From NCBI GenBank assembly GCA_002438625.1, contig DJPS01000016.1, forward strand, positions 1-58,678: 58,678 bases of DNA, written 5' to 3'. The translations under genes were made by a program, and so were the position numbers. Positions 2,173 to 47,629 of this stretch are shown one piece after another. Source of the DNA: Christensenella sp. UBA6406 (GTDB taxonomy: Bacteria > Bacillota > Clostridia > Christensenellales > UBA1242). Under the pieces are notes generated by a model. The model worked only from the letters and a program-made list of their open reading frames with translations. It made no database searches and was not told the origin of the DNA. The first letter of the stretch is position 1. Each line of letters starts with the position of its first letter.

Positions 2173-2215
2173 CAAAAAAGGCAAAGTGAAGATTTTAATC
2201 ACTTTACCTTTTTCT
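2173..2215 (-). terminator. Intrinsic terminator hairpin, copy A of a 43-nt direct repeat
   Basis: On the minus strand: GGTAAAGTGA-loop-TCACTTTGCC followed by T6. It abuts the TAG stop (2216..2214) of the Toprim-like gene. It is 42/43 identical to 4318..4360. Confidence 0.65.
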
Positions 2216-4095: not shown

Positions 4096-4123
4096 TGCTT
4101 TCCCTCCAAATGTATACACTTTT

Positions 4124-4152
4124 AGTTTACACTCCTTTGCTTTAAAAGTCAA
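4124..4152 (-). promoter_or_regulatory. Candidate promoter of the two-gene cassette
   Basis: On the minus strand: TTGACT (4152..4147), a 17-nt spacer, then TAAACT (4129..4124), about 25 nt upstream of ATG 4095. Confidence 0.4.
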
Positions 4153-22700: not shown

Positions 22701-25700
22701 TGTTGTAAACTTACCGTTCGCACTATCTGCATAAATCTTTTTAAACAATCCTATGCTTAAAGTTTCGCTATCATTAGCACTTGAATTTATACGAATATTA
22801 GATAATTTATAACCATTACCATCAATAGAGACATTACATAAAGTTACATCTTTTGTCATATTATCACCAGCAACATCATTAAAATCAATATTACTAATGA
22901 TTCTATAATATTTGTTGTCTATAACTTTATCCGTTTCTTTATAGTCTTGATTGAAATAGAAATTAAAATCTTCCGCATTTGCAATTAGATATGGGTTAGT
23001 CTTTGCACCAAGATGAGCATTCACACCAAAGATGTATGTAAATGTTCCATCATCATATCTCACCATTGCCCTTGTTGATTTTGCTATATCATTCGCACTT
23101 ACAAGTTCAGGATAACCTTGCTCCATTGTCCAAACTGAATCATAAACATCTGTAACACTAAAACTGAAATTATTAAATTTAAGTTCTACTGCAAATTCTT
23201 CGCTTGTCAACGCAACCACACCTTCACCCAAACTTGAAGTTTCATACGCTTCATCACCAAGTTTCAAATAATAGCAATTTTCTATTCCGTTAGGGTTTTG
23301 ATTTTGTACATTAGACTTAGCATCAACACCAATAAATGGCATATGTAATGCACTATTTGTTAAAACCTTGCTTGCACTATAAGAGGTTTTAATTGTTCCG
23401 CTACTCTCGTTTGAGAATACAAACCCACCCGTTCTAGCATTGCTAGATAGAGTTATATTTGAATATGAATCGCTTATATCGCCATTGTTCTCATATACAA
23501 AACCGCCAATGTTTCCATTTGAAATTAATGCACCATATTTGCTTCTATAGTTTTCTAATATGAATCCACCTTTAACATAAGAAAACATAATCTCGCCTTG
23601 ATTTCTTACGACAAAGCCCGCAGTTTTGCTATCTGTTGCACTAGGATTTGTGTTGTAAACAAACAAATTACTTACAAAACTTGAAGCAATATGCCCTGAG
23701 TTCGTATAAGCAAAGCCCGCAACACTTCCCTTAACTTTAAGTTGAATAAATGCATTGTTATCTTCACCAACTCTACTGTTTGTGATATCTCCATTATTAT
23801 CTAAAACAAATGCACCCATAGTCAAGTCAGTGTCTGTTCCGCCAATGTTCGCAGTTGTTTTAATTTCAAGCGTTTTCATTGTTGAAACAGTTTCAATTTC
23901 AACACCATTTATAACAGTTGACCTATCATAACTTACTTCACCGCTTGACAAACTTTCATAAGATACCGCACAATTTGTAACAATACCATTATTATAAAGA
24001 GCAAAGAAACCAATATTTATGCTTGAATAAGCAGATAAATCTATTGAATTTAATTCACTTATATTAACAGTAACATTTTTAATTATCGTACCTTCACTAA
24101 TTGTTCCGAACAAACCTAATTCTATAGAATTTCCACTTGCAACCGCTTCAATATCAAAAGTCTTAATTATTAAACTGTAACCATTTCCATCAAAACTTGA
24201 AATTGCCGTACTTATAGGTTTATATGCTGTTAAAGTGATATCATTCATCAAAATGTAATGTTCACCCGCTGTCATTCCCTCAAAATCTGCTTGCGTATAA
24301 ACAGGTAGAGGCAAATCCATATCACTAAATGTAACAATATTAAATGAATATTCTTGCTCAAAAATCATAAATGTTTCTGGCAAGTCATAATCGCTATAAA
24401 CTTTTATATTGTAATTATCATATTCATCAAAGCCATATTTTAAAGTGTATTTTAATCCAAAATTAGAACCCGTTGATAAACCTATTAAATACGCTTTACC
24501 CGTGCTAACATCTTCTTTAATATAAAACTTAGAATTTGGAGTTATTTCAGTTTCTACTGAGCCATAGACATTATTAGATATCTTTTTGCTAAATTTAGAA
24601 ATATCATATCTAATAGAATTTTCCAACTTGCCCATCTTTGCTTCCAACCCTAATTCAAAAGTTGCAGTTGCTGGAAGAAGAGAGTTTAAAGTTATACTAG
24701 AATCTGATTTTAAAACCAAATTATAATCATCATCATAAACAAATCTTTTACCTTCAAAATTTGTGCCACTTGCATTCATAAACACAAATTCGTTATAAGA
24801 TTTAGCAAGATATAATTTCTTTCCACTTGCAAGTTTAATTGTGCCATAGAAATATCCGTTATAAATGCCTTCACTTTCCGTGCTTAAACTTGAATACATT
24901 CTTCTCGCCACTTCAAAAGTAGGAGCAGATTTAAAGAATATTTTAGAAACACCAATTTCATAGTATTCTTGCATATTCATTCTTAAATAATTGCTTTCAT
25001 TATTAAATGAATATAAATCTATATCATCAATTAAATAATCAATAACAATCAATTCCAATTCGCTATAAACACTCTTTGAAATGCCGTTCTCTTCATAATC
25101 AACAACAACCAAAACTGTTATTTTTGTGCCACTTGGAATTCCGATTCCAACATAAATTGTATCTTTATAAACTTCCCTACCATTTACAATATCATAGTTG
25201 TTTGATTGCGTGTAAATAACTTTTTCAACTTCGCTTTCACTTAGCATCAACTCTTCGTTATCTAAAACAGCAGTTGGATTATATGTTTGTCCCGCAAAAG
25301 TTCTTCCCATTGTAACTTTAAGATTTGTCGTTGTTCCTCTAACAACATAATGCGTTGTTGATTCTTCTTCTAACTCAACCTTAACAAAAGGAATCTCTTT
25401 TACATTTAAATCAATAGTTTTAACGGCAGAAACCTGTAAAACGCCATTTTCATCATAGGTGTATGCCGTAACCTTAACAGGCAAGATTGTCCCTTCTGGC
25501 AAATTATCTGAAATAAGTGTTCTTACATAGAAATTTCCATCAAAAGACTTTTCTTCATCGTAAACATTTGAATACTTTTGAAGAATCATTGCCTTACCAT
25601 CATCAGTGTATTGCGAACGTGGCTTAATTGCAGAATAGCCACCCGTTCCATCACCATATTTATTTGCAACTAATTGCGTAAATGTTATTTTTTCGCCATT

Positions 25701-28700
25701 AACTTCTTCACTTTCAACTGTTACCATATCTACATTAGAATAGAATGGGAACATATTAATGCTAAGCATACCCATAGAGTTTGAAGCAATATCAAGAGAG
25801 GCAACTTCATTCCTATTGTAAACAAATTCGCCATCACTATTTTGCTTAATCTCTCCGCTTGTGTAGTTTAGCACATCTAACCTTTGCACTTGTTGTGGTG
25901 CAAAAGTTAAAGTTATATTTTTAGTTTTATCAGCAATCAAATCTGAAACAAATGTAACATCGTATGACTTGTTTTCGGTTAGATATCGTGCAGTAAAACT
26001 ATTTTCCAAATTTGCATTTAATAAATAAATTATTTTATAAGTGCCATCTTCTAGCATCGTTGTGCTTTGATAATTTAGTGATAAATTCAAATAATCATCG
26101 CCACAACTAACAAAAGCAGTTAAACCATCGTTTTTAGAATCTGAAATCATAAATACTTCAAAACTAATCGTATCACTTGGACTGTAAACAACGCTATCAA
26201 CACTTGCTTCAATATTAATTGCACCCTCATAAATGTTTATATTTGCATTCTTAGCGTTAATTTGCTTATTGCTTGCATAAACATTTTGAGTTACAACCAC
26301 ATTTAACTCGTCTACAAATTGTGCCTTAATGAACGGCTTAAATATAATTTCATTAGAATATGATTTTATTCCTTCAAAAGACAATGTTCCAACGCTATCA
26401 ACATCCATTGTAATTTTGTCCACATAAACAGGATAGCATCTTCCGTTATAATATACACCATAACCAACCTTTCCATCTTTTGAAACTTTATCTAAAATCA
26501 ACTTGTCCACATCTAAATCATTAAACACCAAATTGTTGTTAGACATAGTTGCATAATGTTTTACATCATCTATCTCTATATAATAAGTTGCACTAAACTC
26601 TTGTTGATTTACTGTAAATTGCCCAAAATCAAAATAAGAAGTATACATATTTTGATAAATAGGATATTTACCACCATTATAAGACATAAACAAATTAATT
26701 GTGCCATCTTCGCCCGCTTCAAACACAACTGTTCCACCAGTTAAATCTTTAAATACAACATCAGAGCCCACAACTTCTGCTTTATAAACTTTCCCACCAA
26801 TAGCAGTGTAATAAGATGTTGTACCTTCTATATAAGTGTTTGATGCCTTTGATTGCATTTCAATCGTTAGACCCATTCTTTCGCTTTGCTTAAATTCAAC
26901 ATCGTTTAAAGTGCTTAGAATCTTAGCAAAAGCATCTAATTTAAAGTCCTTTCTAATGCTAATTGTTGCGCCATTATCATATTCCACACCGCTTGCGTTT
27001 GTACCACTATAAAGTTTAAATGCAGAAACAAAATTTGTTACATAAATTTGTATTGTTGTCTTTAAACTAGGATTTACAACACTTGAAATTTCAAGCAATA
27101 CAAGCCCTTCACCTTTAATTGTTATTGTGCCATTTGCATTTACTGAAACAATTTTACTTTCGTTTCCCTTTGCATCTTTTGCAACAACATTAAGCCTTAC
27201 CGCACTAAATGGAATAGGGAAAACTTCCACATCTAACACATCGCTTAAATTTACGACATTTAAGTTTCCAGCAATTTGCCTAAACTCGTATTTTTTATCA
27301 CTGCTTAAATTACTTTCAAAACTTGCATCTAATTCATAATAGAACAAAACTGCCTTAGAATCATCAACTTTAACAAATTTGTCTCCACCTTCTTTAACTG
27401 TTACGCTCATCATATCGTAAAGAACGCTAAATAAAGGAAGTTCATTAGGTCTGCATATGATTAACCTACCACCATTAAGACTTTCATCCAAATCAACATT
27501 TTTGCCGTTTACGACAATCGTTGTGCCAGGTTTAACCCATAATTTAACATCATTATAAGTTGCATTAATTAAATTTGATTCATTATAACTATTGTCCGCT
27601 TCACTAATATAATAATATGAACTAACCGCATTTATAACGCCCAAAGTTGCACCATTTGCAAAACTGAACCTTACATCTGCACCATTTGCAACACCAATCA
27701 TTTTTCCGCTTGTTGCAACAATATCACTGTAACAGCCCAAAACAAAACCATTTGTTACAAAGCCTGCAATCGTTCCAATACTTCCACTTCCGCTTATTGC
27801 ATTGCCTTTAAATGCAGTGCTTATATAACTGAATGAAATAATGCTCTTTATTTCAATATTAATTACGCTTGTTTTGCTTTCATTTTCGTACGCAATTAAG
27901 CCCCTTTCTTGACTATCCATAAAGCCAACCAAACCGCCAACTTTATCTTCACCAACAATCGCTAATTCATTGCCCGTTTCAACAACTGAATCACTAATTT
28001 GATTTGTGCTTACTCCACTTATTCCGCCAACATTACTCTTGCCTTTAATCTTACCAGTAAAATACGCATTATTTATATAATAATCATTTGCACCAACAAT
28101 TCCACCAACATTTAAAATGCTATTTGCCACAATATTTGCAGAAACGCCAACATCTTTAATCATTATCTTATTAAAGAAATCTTCCGCACTCTTTGCCTTA
28201 AAATCAATAGAAGAATCATCTTCACCTTCCGCCGTTGTTGCCGTGCTATAATCAACAATCGCACTACCAATAAATCCGCCAACAGCCGAACTTGCATAGC
28301 CCGCATCTTCAACAATTAACTCACCTAAAACAACATCTAAACCGCCATTGCCAAAATATGATTGATAAATTATTTTGCCATTATCTCCGCTTGTTGCATT
28401 CCCGCTCAAACTGCCAGTTACAGTTGCACTTAAAATTGAAGTTATTTCATTTGCAGAATTTATATAAACATTTGACTGTATTGCACCCGCAAAACCGCCA
28501 ACATAAATATCGTTATCCGTAATTGCACCGTTATCAACAACCTTCAAATGCTTCAAATCAACTGCCGTAAATCCGCCACCTAGCGTTACATTGACCCCGT
28601 TTTCAATAAAGCCAAACGCACCACCAACAAAGTTGCTCTTTTGTGCCAAATTTATGCAGTAGTTATCCACATTATCCACAAGACTTTTAACTGAAATATT

Positions 28701-31700
28701 TTCAATTTTAGTCTTTTTAACTTTTTCGTTCCTATCTATCGTATCATCAATAGTCTGCCTTACAACACCCGCAAGAATGCCCACATATAAATCAGCATTT
28801 AAGTTGCTTGCATTTATATTAAATTTAGAGCATTCAACTTCCAAATCCACAATTTGCCCGCAATTTATGCTTGCAAACAAACCAACATAGGCATTGTTTG
28901 AGCCACTCACATTCGCATCAATGCTTAAACCTGTAATTTTTGAAGTTATTTCAATTTGATTATATCCAATTTTATATTTTCCACTTAAATATCCCGTAAA
29001 TGGTCTATCATAAGCACCAATAGGTGTCCAAGATGAAATTTTAGATAAATCAATGTCATTGGCAAGCACATAATGCAAACTCATAGAATTCGTATTTTCA
29101 CCAATCGCAATTAAGTCATTTGAATCCGTTATCCTATAAGCGGTGTCAATGCTTGAACCATCTGCCACAACAATTTGTATATCTCTATACAAACTCATAT
29201 GGTCCAAATCAACATAACTATCTTCCGCTACAACCCTAAGCGTTGCAACACCACCCCTAAGTGGCATAACTCTGCCATCACTTGAAACAGTAAACACAGG
29301 CACAGCATTATCATCGTTTCTATTTTGAATGTAAATATATTTTAAATTCTTATTAAATGCATCATTTGGATAGGCAACGGCTTGAACATTATAAGAATTT
29401 CTAGTTCCAACTAAATTGTTCTCATTATCATAACTTGCAAGCCCGTCCCTAGCATCAAAATAAATTTCACTATTGAATACGTTAACAAATTTAATGTCTT
29501 GCACCATAACTGCCTTAACAACTTCAATTACACAATTTGCACTATATGTCCTTCCTTTATCCTTAACATAAGCAACAACGGTAACCACTTCGCTATCTCT
29601 ATCGCTATCCAAAATTGGACCAGCCGTAAATGTTGTCATAAGTCCATTAAATTCACTTATTGAACCAGATGAACCCACAATCTCCCAAGCTATATCTTCT
29701 TCCTTAATTGATGCATTGTTAGGATAAATAGATAAATTTAATTTTAATTGACTATGCTTTGAAATATTGTTATAGCCAACAGTTGTATAATCTTTAAGCG
29801 TTGCACTTGCATAATTTATTGCAACATTATTAATAGGTATATATCCTTCAACCGAAAAAGTTTTAGTCAACGCTTCATCATCTTGCACCACGCCAAACTC
29901 ATTATAGCCATAAATATAAACAGTTACAACCGCCCTACCAACACCTAAAATGCTCACATAACCTGTGTTGTTAGAAACTGAGACATATTGCTGTCCTTGA
30001 GCATTTACTTCATATCTAATAAGAGCAACGCTGGCATCATCATTCACCTTAACACTCGTTGAAAATCCGCCCTTAATTTTAGCAGATACATAACTTAAAG
30101 AGCCTTGCCCATCAACAACCTTTTCGCCAATAGAACCATTTTCAAATTGATTATCTCCTAAAATTATTGCACTTTCTAATTTTCCATAAACAATTATTTT
30201 TATTGTTAAATAATGCCCATTGCCACTATCAAATGTAATCTCACTTTCTCCAGCCTTTAAGCCATAAACAACATATTCTGTGTTAGATTGCTTTAAAATT
30301 CTAATATTGTCATTATCAATTTTATAAGTTATGCCAGATGTGTCCCCCGCATTGTTCCCTGTACCCAAATAAATTACAGAGCCACTTCCGCTTCCTTCGC
30401 CTTTTTCAACATAAATAGTGCTTTGACCCGTTGTTAATTCTTGTATACCTTCAAGAACTGTAAGATTAACTTTCGCCTTTACTTCATCGCCCTTGTTATA
30501 AACCTTAGCAATTTGAGAAGTTGCAGTGAATGAATATTTTGTATTTTGTGCTACTGTTGAAAGCGTGCTTTTAATGTAAATCGTTTCACCCGCCTTAACA
30601 GTAAAAGGTTCAAACCCAACAACACTTCCAGATGCATCTAAAATCGCACCAAGCCTATTGCCTTCACTATCCAAGATTAAAAGCGAATTTTGAACAGCAA
30701 GCGTATCCTCAAATTCAATAAGAATATCTGCATTTTCTTCCAAAACACTTGAAGGTGTTAAAGTAAATCTAAATGCCATTCCATAATCGCCACTTGCATA
30801 ACGATTGTAAATTGTTTTGTTAAACTCGCCACCATTAGCCTTAGAACTTTCACCATTTACATTAATGTCATAAGGAGATTCAATAACACTAACATTAAAT
30901 GTAATTTCAAGTGGCTCAATAAAGTCTTCCGCACCATCAATGCTAAACTTTAATGTAATCGCACTCTTGCCAAGCCCAACCGCTTTAACCGCCACTTTAT
31001 TTACGGAAAGTTTTTCAGCAGTAACACTTTCTCCGTTCTTAGAAATAGTTAAATTTTGGTTCATTATGTTTGCAGTATAATCTATTTCAAAAACAAATTC
31101 ACTATAATATTCAATAGTCTTAACCATTGTAAGCGTATCATAAATTGCTTGCCCATTTTGATAAAGAATTAATGAATCATTATCAGTTGAATAAACTCGC
31201 CTTATCGTTACATCTTCTTTATCCACACCCTTTATAACATTCACAGGGATGTTTGCAAACACTTCATCGCTAACCTTTGCCTTAACAACCAAACTGCCCG
31301 CACTTGTCGCATTTGTCGCATCTATAACACCAGTGTTCTCATCAATAGTAACATTTAAATTTTGCGGATTAGATTCAATGCTATATTTAATCTCCGAAAC
31401 ATTGCCATCTATTGGCGCTATCATCATACTTTCGTTAGGCCTTATAGCATTCTTATGTCCTATTGCAACATAATGTGTATAGCCCGTAACAAGTGCCATA
31501 GACTTAATTGGTTGAATAACATTTACCAAAATATCCTTATGTACTTTGCTGTTTTCAGTTAAAAACGCAACAACCTTTGCTTGACCTGCTTTTAAGCCCG
31601 TAACAGTTACACTATATCTGTCATATTTCCTTTCGCTAGAAACAAGCACAACACCTTCGTTTTCAACCCTAAACACAATGTGTGAATTCTTAAACTCGTT

Positions 31701-31886
31701 GACCGTAACTTCAAAATTAGCCGTGCTTAAATCACCGCCTTCGCCTTCACTATCATCTAGCCTTATTGTTACTTCATCAACTGTTGATGTTATTTTCGTT
31801 CCTATCTTAACTTCTCCGCAACCAGACACAAACACTGATACGCAAAAGAATAAAAATATTAGACTTAAAGCAAATCTTTTCTTCAT
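16743..31886 (-). CDS. Giant (5047 aa) surface lipoprotein, paralogue of the 3956-aa protein, with Ig-like domains, many GLUG-motif beta-helix modules and a Gly/Cys-rich C-terminal tail
   Basis: A single uninterrupted ORF. The lipobox is VSG-C (MKKRFALSLIFLFFCVSVFVSGC). The N-terminal region is collinear with the 3956-aa protein (IDATNATSAGSL vs IDATNATVAGKF; TLTPSSVLEEN vs SLSPSSVLLED). Abundant VGG(L/F/I)(V/I)G repeats are present. The SD AAGGAG precedes ATG 31886. Confidence 0.85.
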   Translation of the reverse strand: MKKRFALSLIFLFFCVSVFVSGCGEVKIGTKITSTVDEVTIRLDDSEGEGGDLSTANFEVTVNEFKNSHIVFRVENEGVVLVSSERKYDRYSVTVTGLKAGQAKVVAFLTENSKVHKDILVNVIQPIKSMALVTGYTHYVAIGHKNAIRPNESMMIAPIDGNVSEIKYSIESNPQNLNVTIDENTGVIDATNATSAGSLVVKAKVSDEVFANIPVNVIKGVDKEDVTIRRVYSTDNDSLILYQNGQAIYDTLTMVKTIEYYSEFVFEIDYTANIMNQNLTISKNGESVTAEKLSVNKVAVKAVGLGKSAITLKFSIDGAEDFIEPLEITFNVSVIESPYDINVNGESSKANGGEFNKTIYNRYASGDYGMAFRFTLTPSSVLEENADILIEFEDTLAVQNSLLILDSEGNRLGAILDASGSVVGFEPFTVKAGETIYIKSTLSTVAQNTKYSFTATSQIAKVYNKGDEVKAKVNLTVLEGIQELTTGQSTIYVEKGEGSGSGSVIYLGTGNNAGDTSGITYKIDNDNIRILKQSNTEYVVYGLKAGESEITFDSGNGHYLTIKIIVYGKLESAIILGDNQFENGSIGEKVVDGQGSLSYVSAKIKGGFSTSVKVNDDASVALIRYEVNAQGQQYVSVSNNTGYVSILGVGRAVVTVYIYGYNEFGVVQDDEALTKTFSVEGYIPINNVAINYASATLKDYTTVGYNNISKHSQLKLNLSIYPNNASIKEEDIAWEIVGSSGSISEFNGLMTTFTAGPILDSDRDSEVVTVVAYVKDKGRTYSANCVIEVVKAVMVQDIKFVNVFNSEIYFDARDGLASYDNENNLVGTRNSYNVQAVAYPNDAFNKNLKYIYIQNRNDDNAVPVFTVSSDGRVMPLRGGVATLRVVAEDSYVDLDHMSLYRDIQIVVADGSSIDTAYRITDSNDLIAIGENTNSMSLHYVLANDIDLSKISSWTPIGAYDRPFTGYLSGKYKIGYNQIEITSKITGLSIDANVSGSNNAYVGLFASINCGQIVDLEVECSKFNINASNLNADLYVGILAGVVRQTIDDTIDRNEKVKKTKIENISVKSLVDNVDNYCINLAQKSNFVGGAFGFIENGVNVTLGGGFTAVDLKHLKVVDNGAITDNDIYVGGFAGAIQSNVYINSANEITSILSATVTGSLSGNATSGDNGKIIYQSYFGNGGLDVVLGELIVEDAGYASSAVGGFIGSAIVDYSTATTAEGEDDSSIDFKAKSAEDFFNKIMIKDVGVSANIVANSILNVGGIVGANDYYINNAYFTGKIKGKSNVGGISGVSTNQISDSVVETGNELAIVGEDKVGGLVGFMDSQERGLIAYENESKTSVINIEIKSIISFSYISTAFKGNAISGSGSIGTIAGFVTNGFVLGCYSDIVATSGKMIGVANGADVRFSFANGATLGVINAVSSYYYISEADNSYNESNLINATYNDVKLWVKPGTTIVVNGKNVDLDESLNGGRLIICRPNELPLFSVLYDMMSVTVKEGGDKFVKVDDSKAVLFYYELDASFESNLSSDKKYEFRQIAGNLNVVNLSDVLDVEVFPIPFSAVRLNVVAKDAKGNESKIVSVNANGTITIKGEGLVLLEISSVVNPSLKTTIQIYVTNFVSAFKLYSGTNASGVEYDNGATISIRKDFKLDAFAKILSTLNDVEFKQSERMGLTIEMQSKASNTYIEGTTSYYTAIGGKVYKAEVVGSDVVFKDLTGGTVVFEAGEDGTINLFMSYNGGKYPIYQNMYTSYFDFGQFTVNQQEFSATYYIEIDDVKHYATMSNNNLVFNDLDVDKLILDKVSKDGKVGYGVYYNGRCYPVYVDKITMDVDSVGTLSFEGIKSYSNEIIFKPFIKAQFVDELNVVVTQNVYASNKQINAKNANINIYEGAINIEASVDSVVYSPSDTISFEVFMISDSKNDGLTAFVSCGDDYLNLSLNYQSTTMLEDGTYKIIYLLNANLENSFTARYLTENKSYDVTFVSDLIADKTKNITLTFAPQQVQRLDVLNYTSGEIKQNSDGEFVYNRNEVASLDIASNSMGMLSINMFPFYSNVDMVTVESEEVNGEKITFTQLVANKYGDGTGGYSAIKPRSQYTDDGKAMILQKYSNVYDEEKSFDGNFYVRTLISDNLPEGTILPVKVTAYTYDENGVLQVSAVKTIDLNVKEIPFVKVELEEESTTHYVVRGTTTNLKVTMGRTFAGQTYNPTAVLDNEELMLSESEVEKVIYTQSNNYDIVNGREVYKDTIYVGIGIPSGTKITVLVVVDYEENGISKSVYSELELIVIDYLIDDIDLYSFNNESNYLRMNMQEYYEIGVSKIFFKSAPTFEVARRMYSSLSTESEGIYNGYFYGTIKLASGKKLYLAKSYNEFVFMNASGTNFEGKRFVYDDDYNLVLKSDSSITLNSLLPATATFELGLEAKMGKLENSIRYDISKFSKKISNNVYGSVETEITPNSKFYIKEDVSTGKAYLIGLSTGSNFGLKYTLKYGFDEYDNYNIKVYSDYDLPETFMIFEQEYSFNIVTFSDMDLPLPVYTQADFEGMTAGEHYILMNDITLTAYKPISTAISSFDGNGYSLIIKTFDIEAVASGNSIELGLFGTISEGTIIKNVTVNISELNSIDLSAYSSINIGFFALYNNGIVTNCAVSYESLSSGEVSYDRSTVINGVEIETVSTMKTLEIKTTANIGGTDTDLTMGAFVLDNNGDITNSRVGEDNNAFIQLKVKGSVAGFAYTNSGHIASSFVSNLFVYNTNPSATDSKTAGFVVRNQGEIMFSYVKGGFILENYRSKYGALISNGNIGGFVYENNGDISDSYSNITLSSNARTGGFVFSNESSGTIKTSYSASKVLTNSALHMPFIGVDAKSNVQNQNPNGIENCYYLKLGDEAYETSSLGEGVVALTSEEFAVELKFNNFSFSVTDVYDSVWTMEQGYPELVSANDIAKSTRAMVRYDDGTFTYIFGVNAHLGAKTNPYLIANAEDFNFYFNQDYKETDKVIDNKYYRIISNIDFNDVAGDNMTKDVTLCNVSIDGNGYKLSNIRINSSANDSETLSIGLFKKIYADSANGKFTTIKNLSLHILEANALNVSYMGGLAGIVEDTNILNINVSSDSVMQAYNVVGGLAGIISGQSVLNRINSSASVQAVYKASEKQEKPLVYDKQENVRKISHAGSVAGIADLSTELPYEEFVLMNNANIKFVSVSGDVSVSGEYVGGVFGYLGESSAVYDISFEVKYDDSENRQQIYSTYCAGGIVGVNYGSINHAKVRHSDENQAKVDNAIKTYLKTGATGNFGKTNLFNGKLWYVGGVVGINYGGIVTNSYTRVDIVDPNISSDLDEVTEQYFGGLVGVTYGGEISSAYASGNIVTKASETEENDNYYAGGLIGRVNYLAGRVIKDQDNKTNPYVITLRTLYALNYWDYSTAKTTFRTDGTNYYAGTYVGYVSPIEDSKITTDVGALYSINQIKFNGKNLFSGSNGVSGSVALRMVGKNDANLLGNSSELDYELERSLSSITLNDIYEIDSTNFAHVTTFLLELLNVSGGSIWDRYWGEYPELRLGNKLNEEEIYTAEQLIKAINESPYKTFRIMNDLDFSGVTSFVKRTFTGKLLSARTDDKDNLISTNFYNIDYTALFAPANKNENIGFFVSTKRATISEINFFIIGANYSSTYVERFGVVSAQDEASSLNNVRVICVSNPQVTSSNAKALSLGTLKINGCKVGGIVGDVSGTIVLNSCSFSGNIELINNYTPTHNLYFGGLIGYSAIVKLYDRTTFGYFDFATNMQFGVYTQKTATEEYAFRLVSEVSLTSLPSGSSTVKVSETDSKCDNLYVGGLVGFNGSMLIANNASIQGRTNSNITISVDASAKYIRVGGLAGRIDSGNIRNFYAYVNVNCSSGEWAYVGGLLGESTNAVISSVYLGAFNNNSKVNVENINSIAKVGGIVGSSIVTSMNASNLSNQTNAYVDIDFSGNAKYLAMGGIYGEFHNYAKTNQAIQNNRINAYGTLNANTAQFMYVGGLVGNNVLKVLDSNDSSATSINYSYSGMEISIYSNKIAYVGGIIGNAENLSLNNLVLSGDETSYKDSGSLEIKNCVASGYIDISTGSKFEHIYAGGIAGDTRDSISNTTILTTIVKPEYGNENKNKYNIDVLAGVNNYKGGNNGITVVDEVTGSRFESSKLLTSDDNTIRFANSDSYNILDYVDFLDEFDRSADMMYQYIKEFITIKSGTVFNPIRVSSSSGILSSSKTYHLLTRDITVTSSKSINGVFAGNYKQITVSDSLFSKIGKYGVVGNFAVKTTSSSGISSAMVADTSNGVVHDLYATGKVQGSSVGGVVTTNNGMILNVIADIEVISSGTSGIIASTSEDGTIFNCFTLGGLVVDSGNYAGTFVGRSENTLFKFVNSVTSLDTTLSSRNAGVVGYADSKTKFVYCSFDPQAVTRNSIATSTSSLKTLAFDRYLSDTINTGSSYYLLYATNKNTNNVCRNSTKNFGYAYFPRFDSFIRTTITGGYTYVNNFSAFYKLMDTDYKAGVKIKLAYNINQHGFDVKGETKKAWNPKSAAGFSGTLDGNNKKLKGIAIDSKKVSNGDNSALMMGFLYVIDNATITNLDLQLESAGSNMMTEYERYYSSSSASTNVMFADMSKYLSYSGGLCAIASKSTISKVKVSFLTTTKLTANVVGGLVGYAESTNITSCETSNLSVTAYDMIAKATSSGDAIYARNLGLAGGICGAMSDGNLTSSKNNGCTVTGDSALDANFYETVLMNNSVDKVSASNVQATVSFKTFTLQKNETIKILTNFDYTDGNNGFNASPVGGLVAYANNVNISSCSNSGKVVTGHAGNGDNAKGFDPETKKGMKGGNGGNVIAGGIVGINANCNLSGNTNSGSFDFVSDGDHGTAAGRGGNGSDGKDDATSCCYGRTNHIQCPLSHGDWGKGVHSCSDVTKGNDGGNGGNGGYAFIGNSYGATSLNPSSSSYKASGSTIDLQCAPGGDGGKGTKGGDGSHFKAEFFGVLLWEGYHAGKNSGRSGNGGYNGNKVNGDDGTVGEYDVDVGGEEQSGGAGAQGEPSYLQN

Positions 31887-33194: not shown

Positions 33195-33464
33195 TTAAAT
33201 TGAATTTTTATTTATAAATTTTTCTGCATACATTTTTCGTGTTGCCTCGCCACCCCTTATGTGTTTTGTTGCAAAGTTTTCACTTAAAATGCGATGAACT
33301 TCTAAATATAGTTCCAAACTTAAACTTTTAAGCTTTTTCGTTACACTATAATGCACTGTGCTTTTGCTTATGCCAAAAACTTCCGCAGTTTTCCTAACGG
33401 TCGCCTTTGTAGATATAATATATTTGGCAAGCGTTATTGCCCTGTCATCAATCGTTTTATACAT
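33195..33464 (-). CDS. spoIIID: Stage III sporulation transcription factor SpoIIID
   Basis: The HTH core TVRKTAEVFGISKSTVHYSV and the C-terminal HIRGGEATRKMY closely match the SpoIIID pattern (VSKSTVHKDL ... RGGEAT). The second ATG (33464) has better SD spacing than the track start at 33470. Confidence 0.85.
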   Translation of the reverse strand: MYKTIDDRAITLAKYIISTKATVRKTAEVFGISKSTVHYSVTKKLKSLSLELYLEVHRILSENFATKHIRGGEATRKMYAEKFINKNSI

Positions 33465-33587
33465 ACACATTTCCCCTTTATTTCTAAAATTATTCTACTA
33501 TATGCGATGCTTATACAATTTATGACAAAATCTCCCACTTAAAAAAATGCTTGCACAATTTAATTTGCAAACATTTATAAAAATCTA

Positions 33588-34109
33588 TCACATTATTTTA
33601 TTTGCACTTACAGTTTCTAAAAGCCTGTTAAATATTTCTAAATGCTCTTTCTCATCATCAATTATGGAAAGAATTGTTTGCACAACTTTTTCATCTGTTG
33701 TAGTTTCAATTAAATCCATATAATTTTTAATTGCCAACTTTTCACTTTCTATATTTTGCTTTAAAAACACTTTTGGACAAGTTTCATAGTTAGCCCATTT
33801 TGTTATGTAAAAATTTTTATTTGCATCAATGAAAATTGGCTCTTCACCCATTGAAACAAGCAAGTTAGATAACTTTTGCACGTGCTCCATTTCATCTTGA
33901 GAAATTTCTAAAATTGCATTTCTCATCTTTTCATCAAGTGCAACAAATGATTGAAATAAATATGTAAAAACAGCACTTAACTCCCCATCCTTGCCACTTA
34001 TATTTTCCCTTATCCTATCCGCAAGCGTATAACTTTTAGGTGCATTTTGTGCATTGCAACCACAGTTGCATCTACAATTTGGATTTTGACAATTTCGTTT
34101 AAATAGCAT
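33588..34109 (-). CDS. Ferritin-like / Mn-catalase (CotJC-like) family protein with a Cys-rich N-terminal extension
   Basis: The di-metal helix motifs have ELSAV..Y and EISQDEMEHVQ spacing, plus a later EKEH. The N-terminus is NCQNPNCRCNCGCN. Confidence 0.5.
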   Translation of the reverse strand: MLFKRNCQNPNCRCNCGCNAQNAPKSYTLADRIRENISGKDGELSAVFTYLFQSFVALDEKMRNAILEISQDEMEHVQKLSNLLVSMGEEPIFIDANKNFYITKWANYETCPKVFLKQNIESEKLAIKNYMDLIETTTDEKVVQTILSIIDDEKEHLEIFNRLLETVSANKIM

Positions 34110-34319
34110 ATATCATTTACTCCTTTACTGATTAATTTATGCAACACCCGCAAATTATGTGCCAATTTAAAAGATAGCAAATTTAAATATAGAAACAAAA
34201 GACACAAAAAAATTTTGGCAAAACAAAATTTACCAAAATCTTTCTTTTGCAAAAAATCCTTTATAACAAATTAAAAATGATAAAAATAAACTTTCAAAAT
34301 TAATTTAATCTTTCGTTAA

Positions 34320-34550
34320 TTAATTAGATTTCTTAGCTTCAATATATTTAACTATGTCACCAACAGTCTTTAAATTAACCGCTTCTTCATCTGGTATAGC
34401 AATGCCAAAATTATCTTCTAGTGTCATAAGCATTTCAACTGTATCAAGTGAATCCGCTCCCAAATCTTCAACTATCCTTTTATCTTCTGTAATGCTATTT
34501 TCATCAATATGCATTTGTTCAGCGATTAGTTTTTTTACTTCTTCAAACAT
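34320..34550 (-). CDS. acpP: Acyl carrier protein
   Basis: The phosphopantetheine attachment motif LGADSLDTVE is present. The protein is 76 aa from ATG 34550, with AAAGGAG 5 nt upstream. The track start at 34592 is a longer upstream extension. Confidence 0.85.
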   Translation of the reverse strand: MFEEVKKLIAEQMHIDENSITEDKRIVEDLGADSLDTVEMLMTLEDNFGIAIPDEEAVNLKTVGDIVKYIEAKKSN

Positions 34551-34803
34551 AAAAATCTCCTTTTGTAATTTACCTTTATTATTATACAACAACTTTTACA
34601 TTTTTACAAGCATTTAAGCATTATTTTTTCGCTACCGCAAAATTTTAATTTTAGACACATCCTAAAAACGCTTAAACATTGTAACTCTACTTTTCTTACC
34701 CTTTTATTTCAATTTAAAGAAAAAAGCAATAATGCAAATATTAATTTATTTATTAACACCACATTAAATGCTTAAATCTTTCAACAATTATTTATTCTCT
34801 ATT

Positions 34804-35391
34804 TTATTTTTCAGCGAATGCTATATAATCGTTTGGATTAACTTTCACGCCATCTCTGTAAAACTCAAAATGTAAATGTGCTCCATCTGTGTGTTCGCCA
34901 TTTGCACTTGTGCCAACTTGCCCTATAACATCGCCAGATTTAACAGTGTCGCCAACTTTAACTTTTACATCGCTATCTAAACTGCTATACAAACTTTTCA
35001 TATTGTTGCTATGCTCTATAACTATAACAGTGCCTTCTAAATAGTTTGTATAAACTTGTGTAACTTTACCATCTGCAACTGCCACAACATTTGCCCCCGC
35101 TTCTGCGCCCAAATCAATCGCTTTATGTGCTTCCCACCTTTTAAGTGTTGCATTATACATTAATTCAGTATCAGAATATTCCTTTATAACTGTAAAATCT
35201 TTAAGTGGCACATTATAAGTAATTGATGGCACATCAACTGGCACAGTTGGTTCTTTCCCATCATCCTTGATATTGCCCGCACCACCTGACGCAATAGCAA
35301 CAACCGCCACAACAAGTGCAACAACTGCCACCGCTATAATGTATAACATATTAGATTTTATAAAGTTCGCAAATCTATTTCTTTTTTGCAT
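34804..35391 (-). CDS. Membrane-anchored M23/LytM family metallopeptidase (SpoIIQ-like by architecture and proximity to spoIIID)
   Basis: An N-terminal TM segment is present (LYIIAVAVVALVVAVVAIA). The LytM motifs HKAIDL and HLHFE are intact. Confidence 0.65.
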   Translation of the reverse strand: MQKRNRFANFIKSNMLYIIAVAVVALVVAVVAIASGGAGNIKDDGKEPTVPVDVPSITYNVPLKDFTVIKEYSDTELMYNATLKRWEAHKAIDLGAEAGANVVAVADGKVTQVYTNYLEGTVIVIEHSNNMKSLYSSLDSDVKVKVGDTVKSGDVIGQVGTSANGEHTDGAHLHFEFYRDGVKVNPNDYIAFAEK

Positions 35392-35511
35392 TTTTTCTTC
35401 CTCCTATACTCAAATTATTGCCACCATTTATGAGTTTATACATACATTTTTAATTTTTTCTTAAAATTATATTTATATTGATTTAATTTATTATTTATTA
35501 TAAAGTTAAAA

Positions 35512-35988
35512 TCAATAACTTCCAAGAATTAAAGGAAAACCCACACATACAATATTGCCACGCTTAGCAATTTGAATATTTACTTCTTCTCCATACAATG
35601 AAACACTTTCCCCAAATCCTTCGTTAAACCCATAAATTGTTGAAAATGAATCAAATATTTCAGTTTTAACCATTTTAAAATTTGTTCTTTGCAAAAAATC
35701 ACTATATTGTTGCTCATCCGCCTCAAACTCAATGCTTTTTCCATATATTTTATTTATGTCAAAACTATCAAGCAATTCAAGTTCGTTTTGATTAAGTGCA
35801 ATTATGCCACCTTCTCCATTTTTTATATAATGACTATCACTTACTTGCTCCGCATTATTTAATGAAACATAAAAATAATATTTAGGATTTGCACATTCTT
35901 CTAGTGAGAAATTAACCGCATCATATTTACAAAAACCCACCATAATAAAACATAATATAAATGCTACAAATATAAAAAACTTACGCAT
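35512..35988 (-). CDS. Hypothetical exported or membrane-anchored protein
   Basis: There is an N-terminal hydrophobic signal or anchor (MRKFFIFVAFILCFIMVGFC). I recognised no family. Confidence 0.5.
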   Translation of the reverse strand: MRKFFIFVAFILCFIMVGFCKYDAVNFSLEECANPKYYFYVSLNNAEQVSDSHYIKNGEGGIIALNQNELELLDSFDINKIYGKSIEFEADEQQYSDFLQRTNFKMVKTEIFDSFSTIYGFNEGFGESVSLYGEEVNIQIAKRGNIVCVGFPLILGSY

Positions 35989-43618: not shown

Positions 43619-43652
43619 CAAAAAAGTGTAGTAAGAGGAATCTTACTACACT
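43619..43652 (-). terminator. Intrinsic terminator of the adhesin gene
   Basis: An 11-bp stem AGTGTAGTAAG/CTTACTACACT with a 6-nt loop is followed by T6 on the minus strand. Confidence 0.7.
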
Positions 43653-43755: not shown

Positions 43756-46700
43756 TTATAGTTGAATGAATAAGGCAGGGGCTACACATATATATTCAAG
43801 CGAAACGCCTTTCCCTGCTGTTGCAATTCCACCATTCTCACCCACACAAGCGGCAGTTCCTGAATATTCCGTTTTTGTACGAATCCAGTAATAACTTGTA
43901 ATATTTTTACTAGGTCTAGCACCTAATGCTCCTGTTGCGCCAGCATAATCTGATGCATATTTTAGCCTTTGAGATACATTATTATAATAGGTTTTAAAAT
44001 CTCCTATAGATGGAATAAACACATAATCGCCACTATCTACATCTCTTGCATAAACTGTTTTATCGTTTACGTTACTAGTTGAAAAACTTCCTGTATCTAA
44101 TGTTGTTGGCATAATTTTACTTTTTTGAGTTCCTTCTACAAATGCAGAATCTTTAAATTCTCCGTTCAAATATGGTTTGATATCACTTTCTGTATATGGC
44201 ATTTTGCTTGATAAACTAAACGGCATTGCGAACAAAGATGAAATACTATTTAAGTATGCAACATTATTTGTTTCATCTGTATAAAATATTTTCCATATAA
44301 TTGGTTCTATTCTAAAATAATAATCTTTTTTTAGTATATTATATCCACTACCCCAACTAAAGTAATTATATACACTGGTAGCTGGACTTGTGTCAGTTAG
44401 TTCGCTTGTTGGAGTTGCTTTTTTCTTTACATACAAATAGCCATCATCACCTTCATAACATTCATTAAAAGTTGCAAATTGTTTTACTTTTGTTGTATCA
44501 ATAGTTGTTTCGTTCGGTTTAACTGTTTGAGGATAATATCCAAATGCGATACAATTACCCGCACTTTCAGCACCGCTTTCATCTACACTAAAATATTCTG
44601 TTGGAGATTTTGCCATTGCATAACCGCTCGAATTCCAACTTGCTTTTATTGAACTTAAATAAGTGCTATAATCACTTGATATGCTACCTCTTACATACCC
44701 ATTATAATATGAACTTGAAGTATTGTAGAAATCTTTTAATTTTACCTGTACTTTTACATACCAAGTTACATTTTCACTATTTAAAAATTCATTAAGCAAA
44801 ACACCTTTTTCATCTGTCATTTGATTACCATCTTTATCAAAATAACCAACAAACTTATATTTATCATCTGTAATTGTAAAGGTTGGTGCTGTTGCCTTAT
44901 TTTCTTCATTATAACTTGTTGCACTATTGTAAAGTTGCTTTGAGTTATGTTCGCCATATAAAGTAGTGTTCTCTTCGCTTGAAAAGTTCCCCTTATCGCT
45001 TACACTATCAGCATTAAATATAATTGTAGGTCTTGAAATTGTTACAGTTACATTTGGCTCTTCTAGGTTATAATTTTGAAGGACATCTATTTCACCTACA
45101 AGTTCAGCCGTAACTCTTACCGCTTTATTTTCACCTGCACCAGCAGTATTTATCTCTCCGCTAATTTTTCCCAAAGTAATATTATCAGTGCCTTTAATTC
45201 CTATTATTTTTCCGCCACTAACTTCAACACTTGTTTTTCCATTTGCAAACCTGTCTGTCGCTTTTAATTCCTCTATTTTTAATGTTGCTTTTGTTATTTT
45301 AAATTCAACAATTTTTTGACCAACATAATCGCCTATACCTATAAAATACAATTTCGCCGTATTTGTAACATTTATAGATGCAGTTATTACAATATAATCC
45401 ACATCTTTAACCAAGTTACTTCCATTATAAGTAATGGTGTATGATGGCAATGAATTTGATGAATCATATTCTTTATCCTGAGCTACAACGTTTGCGTCCT
45501 TAATATTTTTCGCTTCTGTTATTTGCAATGTATAAGATGCTGTTGAAACTTTTCCATTTAAATCAGTTGCACTTGCACTTATGATTGTTGTGCCAACTTT
45601 TAAAATATGCACAAGCCCTGTTGCACTGTCAACTGTGGCAATATCCGCTGAACTGCTATTATAAACAATTTCCACATTTTCAGTTGATACACATTTTAAA
45701 GAATTTATAAAATCGGCATCACCTAATTTTTTAATAACTGTTGAATTATTAAAACTTAATTCTATTTTTCCCCATTTTGGCTTTAATGTTATATCACCAT
45801 ACATTTGTAAAATGACTTCTTTTGCTTTTACAATTTGGGCAAAATTCCAGTTTCCTCCCGCTTCCACAACTTCCCAACCAATAAAATATTGATTATTTTC
45901 ATCATTAGTTGTTATTTCAGGTAATGACAAATTTGTATCTGCTAAACTGTAACCAATTTTATAAGTGTTTGTTGTGCTGTCTAAACATGAAGATAATTGA
46001 TTTTTATATGCTTCATTTTGAGACATATCAAAAGTGATTGTATAACTTAACGCTTCCCATACCGCATATAATATTATTGCATTTGTTGTTATTTCAGTAT
46101 TTTCAATGGTTATTTTACTATTATTTACAGCATATGTTGTTGCTCCAAATTTCCAACCACTTAGTTTATAGCCTTGTTTTGTTGGTGTTTTATCTATTGC
46201 TATTTCTATTGTTTCATTTTCTTTTGTTACATTTTGTGCTGATGGCGTGCTATTCTCATCTCCGCCATTTACATTGAAAAATACTTTTATTGTGTTATTA
46301 TTCCCACTATATTTTGCATATAGGGTTATATTTTCTGTAACTGTATAATTCTTTCCACTTACACTTTCTTCCGCTGTGCTATTTGCGAGTTGTGTGAAAT
46401 TTTTGTCTTTATACCAAGTTACATCTACGCCTCCAACTTGTGGCAATATTGCAACTTTACTTTCATCACTATTTAAGCATATATAACTATCTACACTTAC
46501 TCCTCCGCAAGTGTCGTATTTAACTATATATCCTGCTTCTGTATATTGCCCAAATATATTGCTTAAATTTATTGCCTTTTCTAAATCTTCTACACTTTCA
46601 ACATTCTTTGTTTCGCCTTTGTCTGTGTATTGCAAATTACTGCTTTGCACTGCTTCTGCTTTTATTTGTAAACTTACACCATTTGTGCTTAAATTATTCC

Positions 46701-47112
46701 CAAATTGTGTTAAGTCTTGCATTTGTAATCCGCTTGCAAATAAGTTATATGTCTTTACTTCACTTGCAGACATTTCCTTTAATGCAGATTTTTCATAATT
46801 TGTTAAATATAGATAGCCACCACTATATTGCCAACCATAATCTTCTGTGCTATTTGAATATGTTGCTTCTAGTGGCAAAATGCTATTTAATGCTATTGCT
46901 GTCTTTTGACTATTTTCATCTTCTCCACTGTAATTAACCTTAATTCTTACGTAACCATTTAGTCCGCTACCTTCCGCTAACTTAACAGCAATGCTACTGA
47001 ATAAGTTGCTACCTTGCTTAACTTCATCAATCTTTATTTGTTTTGAATTTGTTACATTTTCATTATTGTTTACAATTAGATTTACATCTAATTTTTCAAA
47101 CGAAAAAAACAC
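43756..47112 (-). CDS. Large surface protein/adhesin body: TasA/camelysin-like N-terminal domain, Listeria-Bacteroides (Flg_new-type) repeats, a Big_2-like domain and a DUF6273-like C-terminus. It is separated from its start codon and signal peptide by a frameshift in a G9 tract.
   Basis: The TasA-like domain ends ...SLQIKAEAVQSSNL (compare TLTITVQAIQADHL in the 219-aa protein). Repeats carry G(Y/W)-type motifs (KQGYKLSGWKF, YFIGWEVV, YKFVGYFD). A Big_2-like segment reads ADIATVDSATGLVHILKVGTTIISASA. The C-terminus reads YYWIRT...YICVAPALFIQL. The track start at 47112 is an internal GTG (Val) of a frame that stays open up to 47259. Confidence 0.75.
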   Translation of the reverse strand: MFFSFEKLDVNLIVNNNENVTNSKQIKIDEVKQGSNLFSSIAVKLAEGSGLNGYVRIKVNYSGEDENSQKTAIALNSILPLEATYSNSTEDYGWQYSGGYLYLTNYEKSALKEMSASEVKTYNLFASGLQMQDLTQFGNNLSTNGVSLQIKAEAVQSSNLQYTDKGETKNVESVEDLEKAINLSNIFGQYTEAGYIVKYDTCGGVSVDSYICLNSDESKVAILPQVGGVDVTWYKDKNFTQLANSTAEESVSGKNYTVTENITLYAKYSGNNNTIKVFFNVNGGDENSTPSAQNVTKENETIEIAIDKTPTKQGYKLSGWKFGATTYAVNNSKITIENTEITTNAIILYAVWEALSYTITFDMSQNEAYKNQLSSCLDSTTNTYKIGYSLADTNLSLPEITTNDENNQYFIGWEVVEAGGNWNFAQIVKAKEVILQMYGDITLKPKWGKIELSFNNSTVIKKLGDADFINSLKCVSTENVEIVYNSSSADIATVDSATGLVHILKVGTTIISASATDLNGKVSTASYTLQITEAKNIKDANVVAQDKEYDSSNSLPSYTITYNGSNLVKDVDYIVITASINVTNTAKLYFIGIGDYVGQKIVEFKITKATLKIEELKATDRFANGKTSVEVSGGKIIGIKGTDNITLGKISGEINTAGAGENKAVRVTAELVGEIDVLQNYNLEEPNVTVTISRPTIIFNADSVSDKGNFSSEENTTLYGEHNSKQLYNSATSYNEENKATAPTFTITDDKYKFVGYFDKDGNQMTDEKGVLLNEFLNSENVTWYVKVQVKLKDFYNTSSSYYNGYVRGSISSDYSTYLSSIKASWNSSGYAMAKSPTEYFSVDESGAESAGNCIAFGYYPQTVKPNETTIDTTKVKQFATFNECYEGDDGYLYVKKKATPTSELTDTSPATSVYNYFSWGSGYNILKKDYYFRIEPIIWKIFYTDETNNVAYLNSISSLFAMPFSLSSKMPYTESDIKPYLNGEFKDSAFVEGTQKSKIMPTTLDTGSFSTSNVNDKTVYARDVDSGDYVFIPSIGDFKTYYNNVSQRLKYASDYAGATGALGARPSKNITSYYWIRTKTEYSGTAACVGENGGIATAGKGVSLEYICVAPALFIQL

Positions 47113-47263
47113 ACCATCAACTTTGTTTGATGCCGTAAAATACGCATAACTTATTCCAAATCCTAAACTTGCAAGGAATGCTATAACTACTACAGATATA
47201 ATTATACCATATATTGTATTTCTAGTCTGCCCCCCCCCGCCTATTTTGTGGTTTATCCTTCAT
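47113..47263 (-). other. Displaced 5' end of the adhesin gene: SD, ATG, G9 tract and SipW-type signal-peptide coding segment
   Basis: GAAAAGGAG lies 9 nt before ATG 47263. That frame reads MKDKPQNRRGGAD-stop (TAG at 47224..47222). Downstream of the tract, the body frame encodes GQTRNTIYGIIISVVVIAFLASLGFGISYAYFTASNKVDG and continues into VFFSFEKLDV. Confidence 0.75.
47230..47238 (-). repeat. Homopolymeric G9 (C9 on the + strand) tract within coding sequence
   Basis: Direct reading gives ctg-CCCCCCCCC-gcctatttt. The minus strand reads AATAGGC-G9-CAGACT. Confidence 0.95.
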
Positions 47264-47629
47264 TTTCTAAACTCCTTTTCTTTATATTTTTCCTTCATTT
47301 TTTCTTGCACCATTGTAGTCTAGCCCCTAAAACTAAGCCATAATCTTAAATTAAAACTTTTCCCTTTTAAAATTTTAATCCAAAACCATAGCCACGACAC
47401 AAACGCACAATTTATATGAAGTTTTTTGATGTTATCTTCTTTATTTTACATTTTTATTTTTTCTTTGTCAATTATTTTTTATTAATTTTGTTAAAATTTG
47501 AGTTCTTTTTAAATTTAAGGGTGAGGGGAAAGAATATTGTGAACAATGTATATAAATTTTGTATAACTGTCTAGAAATTTGTGCTATTATGTGATAGAAT
47601 ATAAGAGTACAAATGAAAGGAGATTACAA

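Follow-up and report, generated by a model that had tools for sequence, protein, structure and literature searches.

The 58,678-nucleotide (nt) contig DJPS01000016.1 of Christensenella sp. UBA6406 (assembly GCA_002438625.1; hereafter the window, whose positions are used throughout) carries two runs of nine guanines on its minus strand. One lies inside the promoter of a gene for a 219-amino-acid (aa) TasA/camelysin-like protein, and the other lies in the signal-peptide codons of a much larger protein that starts with a related domain. We read both runs as slipped-strand contingency switches that control a family of TasA/camelysin-like surface proteins, and give this reading a probability of about 0.68. 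Slipped-strand mispairing during replication would change the length of a G tract. Gain or loss of a G in the first (tract 1) would change how far apart the -35 and -10 hexamers lie and so increase or decrease transcription of the gene for the 219-aa subunit, and slippage of the second (tract 2) from G9, the OFF state, to G8 or G11 would yield a full adhesin of 1168/1169 residues. Each tract would mutate independently and reversibly, such that cells would differ in their combination of subunit level and adhesin; in the assembled state, the promoter, with its 16-nt spacer, would be partly active and all adhesins OFF. The reading fits the placement of the tracts, their conserved position with differing lengths and frames, and the avoidance of other homopolymers; that the tracts are hypermutable we infer from their sequence.

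The two tracts are the only G/C homopolymers of seven or more nucleotides in the window, which has a G+C content of 32%. They appear as C9 on the plus strand (1947–1955 and 47230–47238) and thus as G9 on the minus strand, each preceded by TAGGC. The string TAGGCGGGGGGG occurs exactly twice, both times on the minus strand (1949–1960 and 47232–47243), and none of 100 dinucleotide-preserving shuffles gave two matches. Under a first-order Markov model of the window, approximately 0.06 C runs of nine or more would be expected, against two observed; over the whole window the same model predicts about 18 A/T runs of nine or more where there are none, and 44 of eight or more where there are three. Since A/T runs of nine or more are absent against the 18 expected, long homopolymers are generally avoided and the two G9 tracts are exceptions; the deficit indicates general selection against slippery runs. 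A six-frame motif scan located a hydrophobic N-terminus followed by AYFTA at two places only (1039 and 47145, both on the minus strand), which belong to the 219-aa gene (473–1132) and to the large gene. A preliminary description of this DNA had stated that the two tracts with their shared string are the only G/C runs of this length and that they are attached to the only two genes with AYFTA signal peptides, and both statements were confirmed by these scans. Related loci are numbered with an L prefix below; in the sequence of the species that was read (the window, L001, L002 and L013) all four G/C runs of seven or more touch TasA-like genes.

The large gene and its tract are laid out as follows.
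47443–47471, minus strand: near-consensus large-gene promoter, TTGACA-17-TAAAAT, containing no repeat tract; the paralog at L013 has a similar promoter and leader.
47222–47263, minus strand: start of the large gene as assembled, an OFF-frame product with the ribosome-binding site (RBS) AAGGAG, ATG, 13 codons (MKDKPQNRRGGAD) and TAG.
47230–47238, minus strand: G9 tract 2, codons 9–12, in the signal-peptide n-region; homologs carry G8, G9 or G10 there.
47131–47229, minus strand: hydrophobic core and AYFTA, which complete the signal peptide in the frame that G8 opens.
46588–47130, minus strand: N-terminal TasA/camelysin-like domain of the large protein, assigned by profile comparison.
43756–46587, minus strand: adhesin body, with the stop codon at 43756–43758.
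About 46063–46284, minus strand: Flg_new repeats (Pfam, 26.9 bits, just below the cut-off).
About 45544–45681, minus strand: Big_2-like domain (Pfam, 21.1 bits, just below the cut-off).
About 43765–44208, minus strand: DUF6273 (29.1 bits against a cut-off of 23.5 bits, with the C-terminus scanned alone).
43625–43652, minus strand: terminator-like hairpin downstream of the large gene.

The gene starts ATG AAG GAT AAA CCA CAA AAT AGG CGG GGG GGG GCA GAC TAG. With G9 the reading frame stops after 13 codons and with G10 after 20, and G8/G11 open a frame of 1168/1169 residues. No in-frame start codon lies between tract 2 and GTG 47112, and this first start past the tract is already downstream of the signal peptide, so the G9 state cannot give a secreted large protein. 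Tract 2 therefore sets the reading frame from within the 5′ coding region, which agrees with the translational gating proposed in the preliminary description. The length of over 1100 aa given there holds for the G8 or G11 form (1168 aa), but the assembled G9 allele is out of frame and stops after 13 codons. Of the architecture given there (Listeria-Bacteroides repeats, a Big_2-like domain and a DUF6273-like end), DUF6273 passes its cut-off, whereas the Flg_new and Big_2 matches fall just under theirs. The unit is monocistronic, since the promoter (47471–47443) and the hairpin (43652–43625) bracket this single gene. A Pfam scan of the large protein gave no cell-wall-anchor domain, no LPXTG motif was seen on reading its sequence (the C-terminus is ...VAPALFIQL), and no sortase family was found among the scanned open reading frames (ORFs) of the window.

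Homologous large genes carry a G tract at the same position.
Window large gene: CACAAAATAGGC-G9, in frame at G8/G11.
L013, in GCA_002405695.1 (a metagenome-assembled genome (MAG), which includes the small-gene locus L002 as well): CACAAAATAGGC-G9, in frame at G8/G11.
L001 and L007, a 1361-aa paralog 9 kb downstream of the small gene: CAAAAAATAGGC-G9, in frame at G8/G11.
L010, from another metagenome: AAAATAGGC-G9, in frame at G8/G11.
L009, from another metagenome: AAAATAGGC-G9, in frame at G7/G10.
L008, from another metagenome: CGCT-G10, in frame at G9/G12.
L019, a 602-nt contig from another metagenome: AATAAGC-G8-CAGACT, in frame through the signal peptide as assembled.

Tract length across these loci is G8 (L019), G9 (five loci) or G10 (L008), and the 3′ flank of the L019 tract is the same as that in the window. 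Paralogs and relatives have a common design, in which ATG and about 10 codons are followed by Asn-Arg-Arg-Gly-Gly, a hydrophobic core and AYFT. The species has at least two further large paralogs bearing AAAATAGGC-G9 and thus at least three large G9-gated genes; the context of L013 (cytidylate kinase upstream, thyX downstream) differs from that of the large gene in the window. A distant locus (L012, found by the A6 alignment search in a Clostridia MAG from roe-deer colon) encodes a family member with no G tract. Six large homologs in public catalogues are called without a signal peptide (P0045, P0046, P0047, P0049, P0050 and P0053), P0045 being a truncated call of the window's own large gene; calls from internal starts are as expected if OFF alleles are frequent.

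Every inspected large gene is disrupted as assembled and homopolymers are error-prone in sequencing, which would suit an account in which the adhesin genes are decaying and the frameshifts, whether pseudogenizing mutations or assembly errors, regulate nothing. We consider this very improbable: six independent loci keep an open frame of 929 to 1459 codons downstream, the sole disruption always falls at the same homopolymer and the same signal-peptide position, and the same lengths come from different samples and assemblers, in metaSPAdes-style NODE, MEGAHIT-style k119/k141 and Logan contigs and in an NCBI MAG. Programmed recoding is a slim possibility. Here G9 would be fixed and a constant minority of full-length protein would arise from RNA-polymerase slippage or +1 ribosomal frameshifting at AGG-CGG-GGG-GGG-G, a site composed of rare Arg codons and then a slippery Gly run. 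G9 is indeed invariant at each locus in all assemblies, AGG and CGG directly precede the run in five of the seven loci, and the six inspected large genes are out of frame in the DNA, with five of the six needing the same correction of -1 nt. However, L009 needs a shift the other way (+1 or -2 nt), on which ground a programmed frameshift of fixed direction was rejected, L008 has the flank CGCT in place of AGG-CGG, and an in-frame G8 allele exists (L019). Recoding would also leave the promoter tract unexplained, as that tract lies in an untranscribed spacer, and the best-studied analogue acts by replication slippage (PMC9187656).

The small gene and tract 1 occupy the other end of the window.
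1941–1968, minus strand: small-gene promoter, TTGACT-N16-TATAAT, with the spacer TT-TAGGC-G9; it matches 11 of 12 consensus positions and is the best match in the region in a promoter scan.
1947–1955, minus strand: G9 tract 1, inside the promoter spacer; G9 gives a 16-nt spacer, G10 the optimal 17 and G8 15.
1133–1940, minus strand: leader of about 800 nt from the promoter to the small gene, in which the longest ORF on this strand is at most 37 aa.
473–1132, minus strand: gene for the 219-aa stand-alone TasA/camelysin-like protein, with a signal peptide ending in AYFTA and a mature part that is a hypervariable cassette.

Tract 1 lies about 800 nt upstream of the 219-aa gene and inside the promoter spacer, so it would act on transcription, as the preliminary description had proposed. 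A predicted terminator was not found in the leader (1133–1940), Rfam gave no riboswitch or other known RNA (whole window at gathering scores, both leaders at E up to 1), and the window contains no tRNA genes. The tract is G9 in five of five same-species copies (the window, L001, L002, L003 and L006). It is also G9 in a sister species (L004/L005), where the spacer is 15 nt and the tract is preceded by TTTTTGC instead of TTTAGGC. The promoter core of the sister species is 85% identical to that of the window and the adjacent giant upstream gene is 71% identical over 9.5 kb; apart from the giant gene, the promoter core is the only other DNA match between the window and the sister species. The 5′ end (TGACATCTTAGTTAGCC) and 3′ end (GGGGAA..ATTATTATGTC, the RBS region) of the leader are conserved with the 260-nt leader of L004, the common 5′ stretch being TGACATCTTA.TTAGCC, and the remainder of the leader cannot be aligned. 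Because the promoter core and leader ends are kept in the sister species, the assignment of the G9 promoter to the small gene itself is supported; and since the sister species keeps G9 with no TAGGC, the conserved promoter feature is G9 and not TAGGC.

Two further features of this region were observed. The leader motif GGGGAA..ATTATTATGTC (window approximately 1353–1376, minus strand; L004 approximately 9925–9950) resembles the RBS and ATG of a tiny ORF, which would encode MSKLK and then a stop in the window and MSHKQQKN and then a stop in L004; L018 has ATA in place of ATG. Just upstream of the G9 promoter, at 2000–2190 on the minus strand, lies a G/T-rich stretch with at least six GGGG/GGGGG runs, unusual at 32% GC, which could be a G-quadruplex or an upstream promoter element.

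The promoter G9 might instead be a fixed structural or regulatory element, such as a rigid G:C spacer block or a regulator site, with only the coding tracts varying and the TAGGC identity due to chance. This we think unlikely, although G9 is kept in two species despite spacers of 16 and 15 nt, which is odd if spacer length is selected, and no length variant exists among the seven copies. A G9 run in a 32% GC genome that otherwise has no homopolymers of nine or more is intrinsically slippery, and its place exactly between the hexamers matches that of classical promoter-spacer switches. The prevalence of G9 can itself be explained by mutational bias: the modal polyG/C length in Campylobacter jejuni is nine, attributed to mutational patterns in which G8 mostly gains and G11 mostly loses a base (PMC3401435), so the uniform G9 observed here has a precedent.

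The preliminary description had treated TAGGC-G9 as one identical element used at two loci, and this did not hold up. TAGGC is species-specific in the promoter, where the sister species has TTGC (TTTTTGC-G9 in full). In the coding tracts, AAT-AGG-CGG-GGG-GGG encodes Asn-Arg-Arg-Gly-Gly of the positively charged signal-peptide n-region, and TAGGC is common to the paralogs by descent. By our own estimate, the chance of the extra TAG match given the conserved GC before the run is roughly 1/50 to 1/64. The presence of TAGGC at both tracts is probably due to Asn-Arg-Arg coding plus chance, and a shared or mobile TAGGC-G9 element was rejected, as the sister promoter has no TAGGC and the Asn-Arg-Arg codons explain the coding copies.

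The small protein has 44 homologs, all metagenomic. Across the resulting 45 sequences the first 35 residues are almost invariant, and the conserved motifs FG.L, VPG, GN.WQ and AIQA.HL are spread across the domain. A scan of GTDB-representative genomes with the family gave no relative, and a scan of JGI metagenomes gave one short locus that does not include the promoter region. Within the species, the mature part is an allelic cassette with 40–65% nucleotide and 54% protein identity (L001 10105–10655 against L006/L007). The cassette runs from just past the AYFTA codons to the stop and has sharp boundaries; its flanks in two strains are approximately 100% identical, both upstream (promoter, leader and signal-peptide codons) and downstream. 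Such a cassette is typical of an exposed antigen, a role that the small protein may share.

The 5′ ends of small-family genes were also seen to be alike in other contigs. The RBS and the first 105 or so coding nucleotides are near-identical between genes that differ in their mature parts and downstream neighbours (L014 1–210, L016 1–170, L017 1–190 and L018 265–475), and three of the small-family contigs break 15–57 nt upstream of the ATG. These near-identical ends suggest a repeated or recombining 5′ module, or else strong constraint on the signal peptide. At L017 (1780–6175) the neighbours of the small-family gene are two tyrosine recombinase genes and one for a 502-aa reverse transcriptase (RVT_1), which could point to a mobile element or to recombination machinery beside a variable surface gene.

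Relationship of the two proteins to TasA/camelysin was examined with three alignments: A1, the small-protein family; A4, the family of the large N-terminal domain with proteins of PF12389 type excluded; and A5, five proteins of PF12389 type (Peptidase_M73, camelysin/TasA), of which four pass the gathering score and one reaches 21.0 bits against a cut-off of 22.5. An exhaustive search of 1.8 billion representatives recovered 26 relatives of the first 214 residues of the large protein, and a word-indexed homolog search with the large N-terminus returned nothing; A4 was too divergent for building search patterns. Among the distant relatives are proteins of approximately 210 aa, and four of them reach the PF12389 gathering score. 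Profile–profile comparison with hhalign aligns A4 with A1 (probability 99.2%, E = 9e-20, 186 columns), A4 with A5 (99.6%, E = 4e-24) and A1 with A5 (99.4%, E = 5e-22). An hmmsearch of 5.8 billion proteins with A4 retrieves many annotated as PF12389 or as ‘SipW-dependent-type signal peptide-containing protein’ (E = 1e-15 to 1e-7). The only PDB matches of the A1 profile are TasA (8aur_A, E = 0.48; 5of1_A, E = 1.3), which are domain-wide and non-significant. AlphaFold2 (AF2) models of the small protein and the large N-domain are confident beta-sandwiches (predicted local distance difference test, pLDDT, 81.8 and 88.1). By these profile comparisons the small protein and the large N-domain are homologous and lie in the TasA/camelysin superfamily, although neither is filed as a PF12389 member. 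In relatives the N-domain is fused to varied bodies, including DUF6273, the YDG domain, BspA-type leucine-rich repeats (LRR) and the Hint domain; among the relatives P0048/P0067, one protein of 1088 aa ends in Hint/PT-HINT and one of 646 aa has BspA-type leucine-rich repeats.

The shared domain raises the question of how the proteins would be assembled. The small protein may be a secreted, fibre-forming and antigenically variable subunit, to which the large proteins would attach through their homologous N-domain, unless they polymerize likewise; processing would be by a SipW-type peptidase encoded elsewhere. A two-component fibre of small and large proteins is, on the sequences, possible but tentative. 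An SF..L/I strand motif is common to the mature N-termini of both proteins, and in TasA the corresponding N-terminal strand acts as the donor strand. Attachment of the large proteins through the N-domain is plausible, since no LPXTG or other anchor was detected, and the sharply bounded hypervariable cassette is as expected for an exposed polymer subunit. Carried further, and somewhat doubtfully, gut Clostridia might build a donor-strand-exchanged fibre of the TasA type with a replaceable subunit cassette and a set of giant adhesins that determine its function and plug in through their N-domain, each G9-gated. On such an arrangement, which is equally doubtful, G9 would be a mutationally stable state one step from ON, and the whole a Gram-positive counterpart of tip-adhesin pili with combinatorial switches.

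Several results count against the picture of switched TasA-like proteins or fall short of confirming it. In direct scans neither protein matches Pfam PF12389 (E up to 0.1) and the small protein has no Pfam match at all. Foldseek comparison of both AF2 models with the PDB gave no match at E = 0.001 or better; the TasA fibre 8aur_A ranks eighth for the small protein (E = 0.11, TM 0.28) and TasA is absent from the top 50 matches of the large-protein domain. The SipW-dependent signal-peptide model TIGR04088 (cognate_SipW) scores 15.7 bits with the large protein, against a cut-off of 19, and does not match the small protein; BLASTP of one protein against the other aligned the signal peptides only. 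It is thus the profiles that carry the TasA relationship, since the direct Pfam and fold searches fall short of significance. The earlier proposal that both proteins have a TasA/camelysin-type domain stands on hhalign and hmmsearch, but is not confirmed by a direct PF12389 match, by pairwise BLASTP beyond the signal peptide or by the SipW-signal model, and the predicted structures, which the preliminary description had suggested as a check, are beta-sandwiches, yet show no significant Foldseek match to TasA.

As regards the tracts, no length polymorphism was seen at any one locus: the promoter is G9 in its five same-species and two sister-species copies, and the L001/L007 paralog is G9 in both copies. 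All six inspected large genes with a long tract are OFF, in a sample biased towards N-truncated gene calls, and uniformly OFF large genes could point to something other than stochastic switching; the only ON example (L019) is a short contig of 602 nt that looks chimeric downstream. As regards a fibre, the small and large genes are 45 kb apart and not in one operon, and synteny ties the small gene to a giant lipoprotein gene rather than to an AYFT-type adhesin. No S24/S26 (SipW-type) peptidase was found among the scanned window ORFs of at least 90 aa, in keeping with the earlier statement that the window has no sipW-like gene, and no signal-peptidase family was found among the called neighbours of related TasA-like loci. 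The two-component system with two switches, as first proposed, is contradicted by the three or more large G9-gated paralogs of the species.

The surroundings of the two genes include two tandem giant genes on the minus strand (4424–16294 and 16743–31886), which encode proteins of 3956 and 5047 aa. The first of these is the gene with 71% nucleotide identity to that found directly upstream of the small TasA-like gene in the sister species. Both giant proteins carry lipoprotein-type signal peptides (..FAGC.. and ..VSGC..), for which reason they were rejected as further AYFT-type proteins. Between the giant gene and the G9 promoter (2214–4152, minus strand) lie two genes, one for a 395-aa ATPase (AAA_21) and one for its partner of 253 aa. 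In PADLOC they correspond to the candidate defence system PDC-M12 (E = 7e-112 for A, E = 2e-40 for B), and they are also AbiLi-like; this pair is absent at the corresponding place in the sister species (L004). A sporulation-type cluster at 33195–35988 (minus strand) encodes SpoIIID (E = 5e-29), a ferritin-like/Mn-catalase-like protein, an M23 peptidase and a weakly DUF1779-like protein; its gene content indicates a spore-forming Firmicute host.

Contingency switching by homopolymers is already known, and what would be new here is the target, an undescribed TasA-like family whose domain is fused to giant adhesins. Neisseria meningitidis has tracts in the promoters of porA and opc, Neisseria pilC has a polyG in its signal peptide, Bordetella has a polyC in the fim promoter, and C. 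jejuni has a polyG phasome. The arrangement in the window resembles the Neisseria, Bordetella and Campylobacter switches in that a G/C homopolymer occupies the -35/-10 spacer or the 5′ coding region of a surface gene, in a low-GC host genome otherwise free of such tracts, and with a modal G9 as in C. jejuni (PMC3401435); those bacteria, however, are Gram-negative pathogens and the proteins are unrelated.

Judged by arrangement, the closest analogue is the G-tract pilus switch of Bifidobacterium breve. In the pilus clusters of strain UCC2003 (bbr_0113a/b and bbr_1889a/b), a G tract stands between a short ORF, which holds the start codon and the Sec signal, and the ORF of a giant pilin (2674 aa); the genes are OFF in the reference genome, slippage of -1+3n turns them ON, and ON is enriched in the mouse gut (PMC9187656). 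Both cases concern a Gram-positive gut commensal in which an intragenic G tract parts the start and signal of a giant surface protein from its body, the reference is OFF, ON needs -1+3n, and equivalent tracts are conserved in related clusters. The B. breve proteins are, however, LPXTG pilins with a sortase in the same operon, whereas the present case shows neither LPXTG nor sortase and has a TasA/camelysin-like N-domain; the window tract lies within the signal-peptide n-region and a second tract acts on a promoter. Switching was measured in B. breve, and here it is predicted from sequence.

A third comparison is with the TasA/TapA/SipW system of Bacillus subtilis and SipW-BsaA-BsaB-BsaC of Clostridium perfringens (PMC9674648, PMC10151520, bioRxiv 10.1101/2024.11.04.621531), in which an AYFT-type signal peptide likewise precedes a beta-sandwich domain of the camelysin/TasA superfamily and a small major subunit is accompanied by accessory proteins with the same N-terminal fold (TapA). 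BsaA, a member of the TasA family, polymerizes after SipW processing (bioRxiv 10.1101/2024.11.04.621531) and, as its authors report, is detectable only by iterative profiles, as is the present family. In contrast to those systems, no sipW lies next to the genes here, which are dispersed and do not make up an operon. The part of the accessory proteins falls to adhesins of 900 to 1500 aa that bear Flg_new, Big_2, DUF6273, Hint or LRR modules; repeats would gate expression in place of regulators such as SinR, and the fibre is putative.

If the two G9 tracts are switches, an uncultured gut Firmicute would vary its surface as Campylobacter, Neisseria and Bifidobacterium do, and metagenome gene callers would systematically truncate or miss such adhesins. 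G-tract lengths could be extracted from metagenomes already available and serve to track host selection on these surface structures. Should the fibre reading also be true, this would be the first homopolymer-driven phase-variable gene set described in spore-forming Firmicutes. The TasA/camelysin fibre family would be extended to fusions with very large adhesin bodies, and would offer a testable model for how TasA-like fibres might acquire binding specificity.

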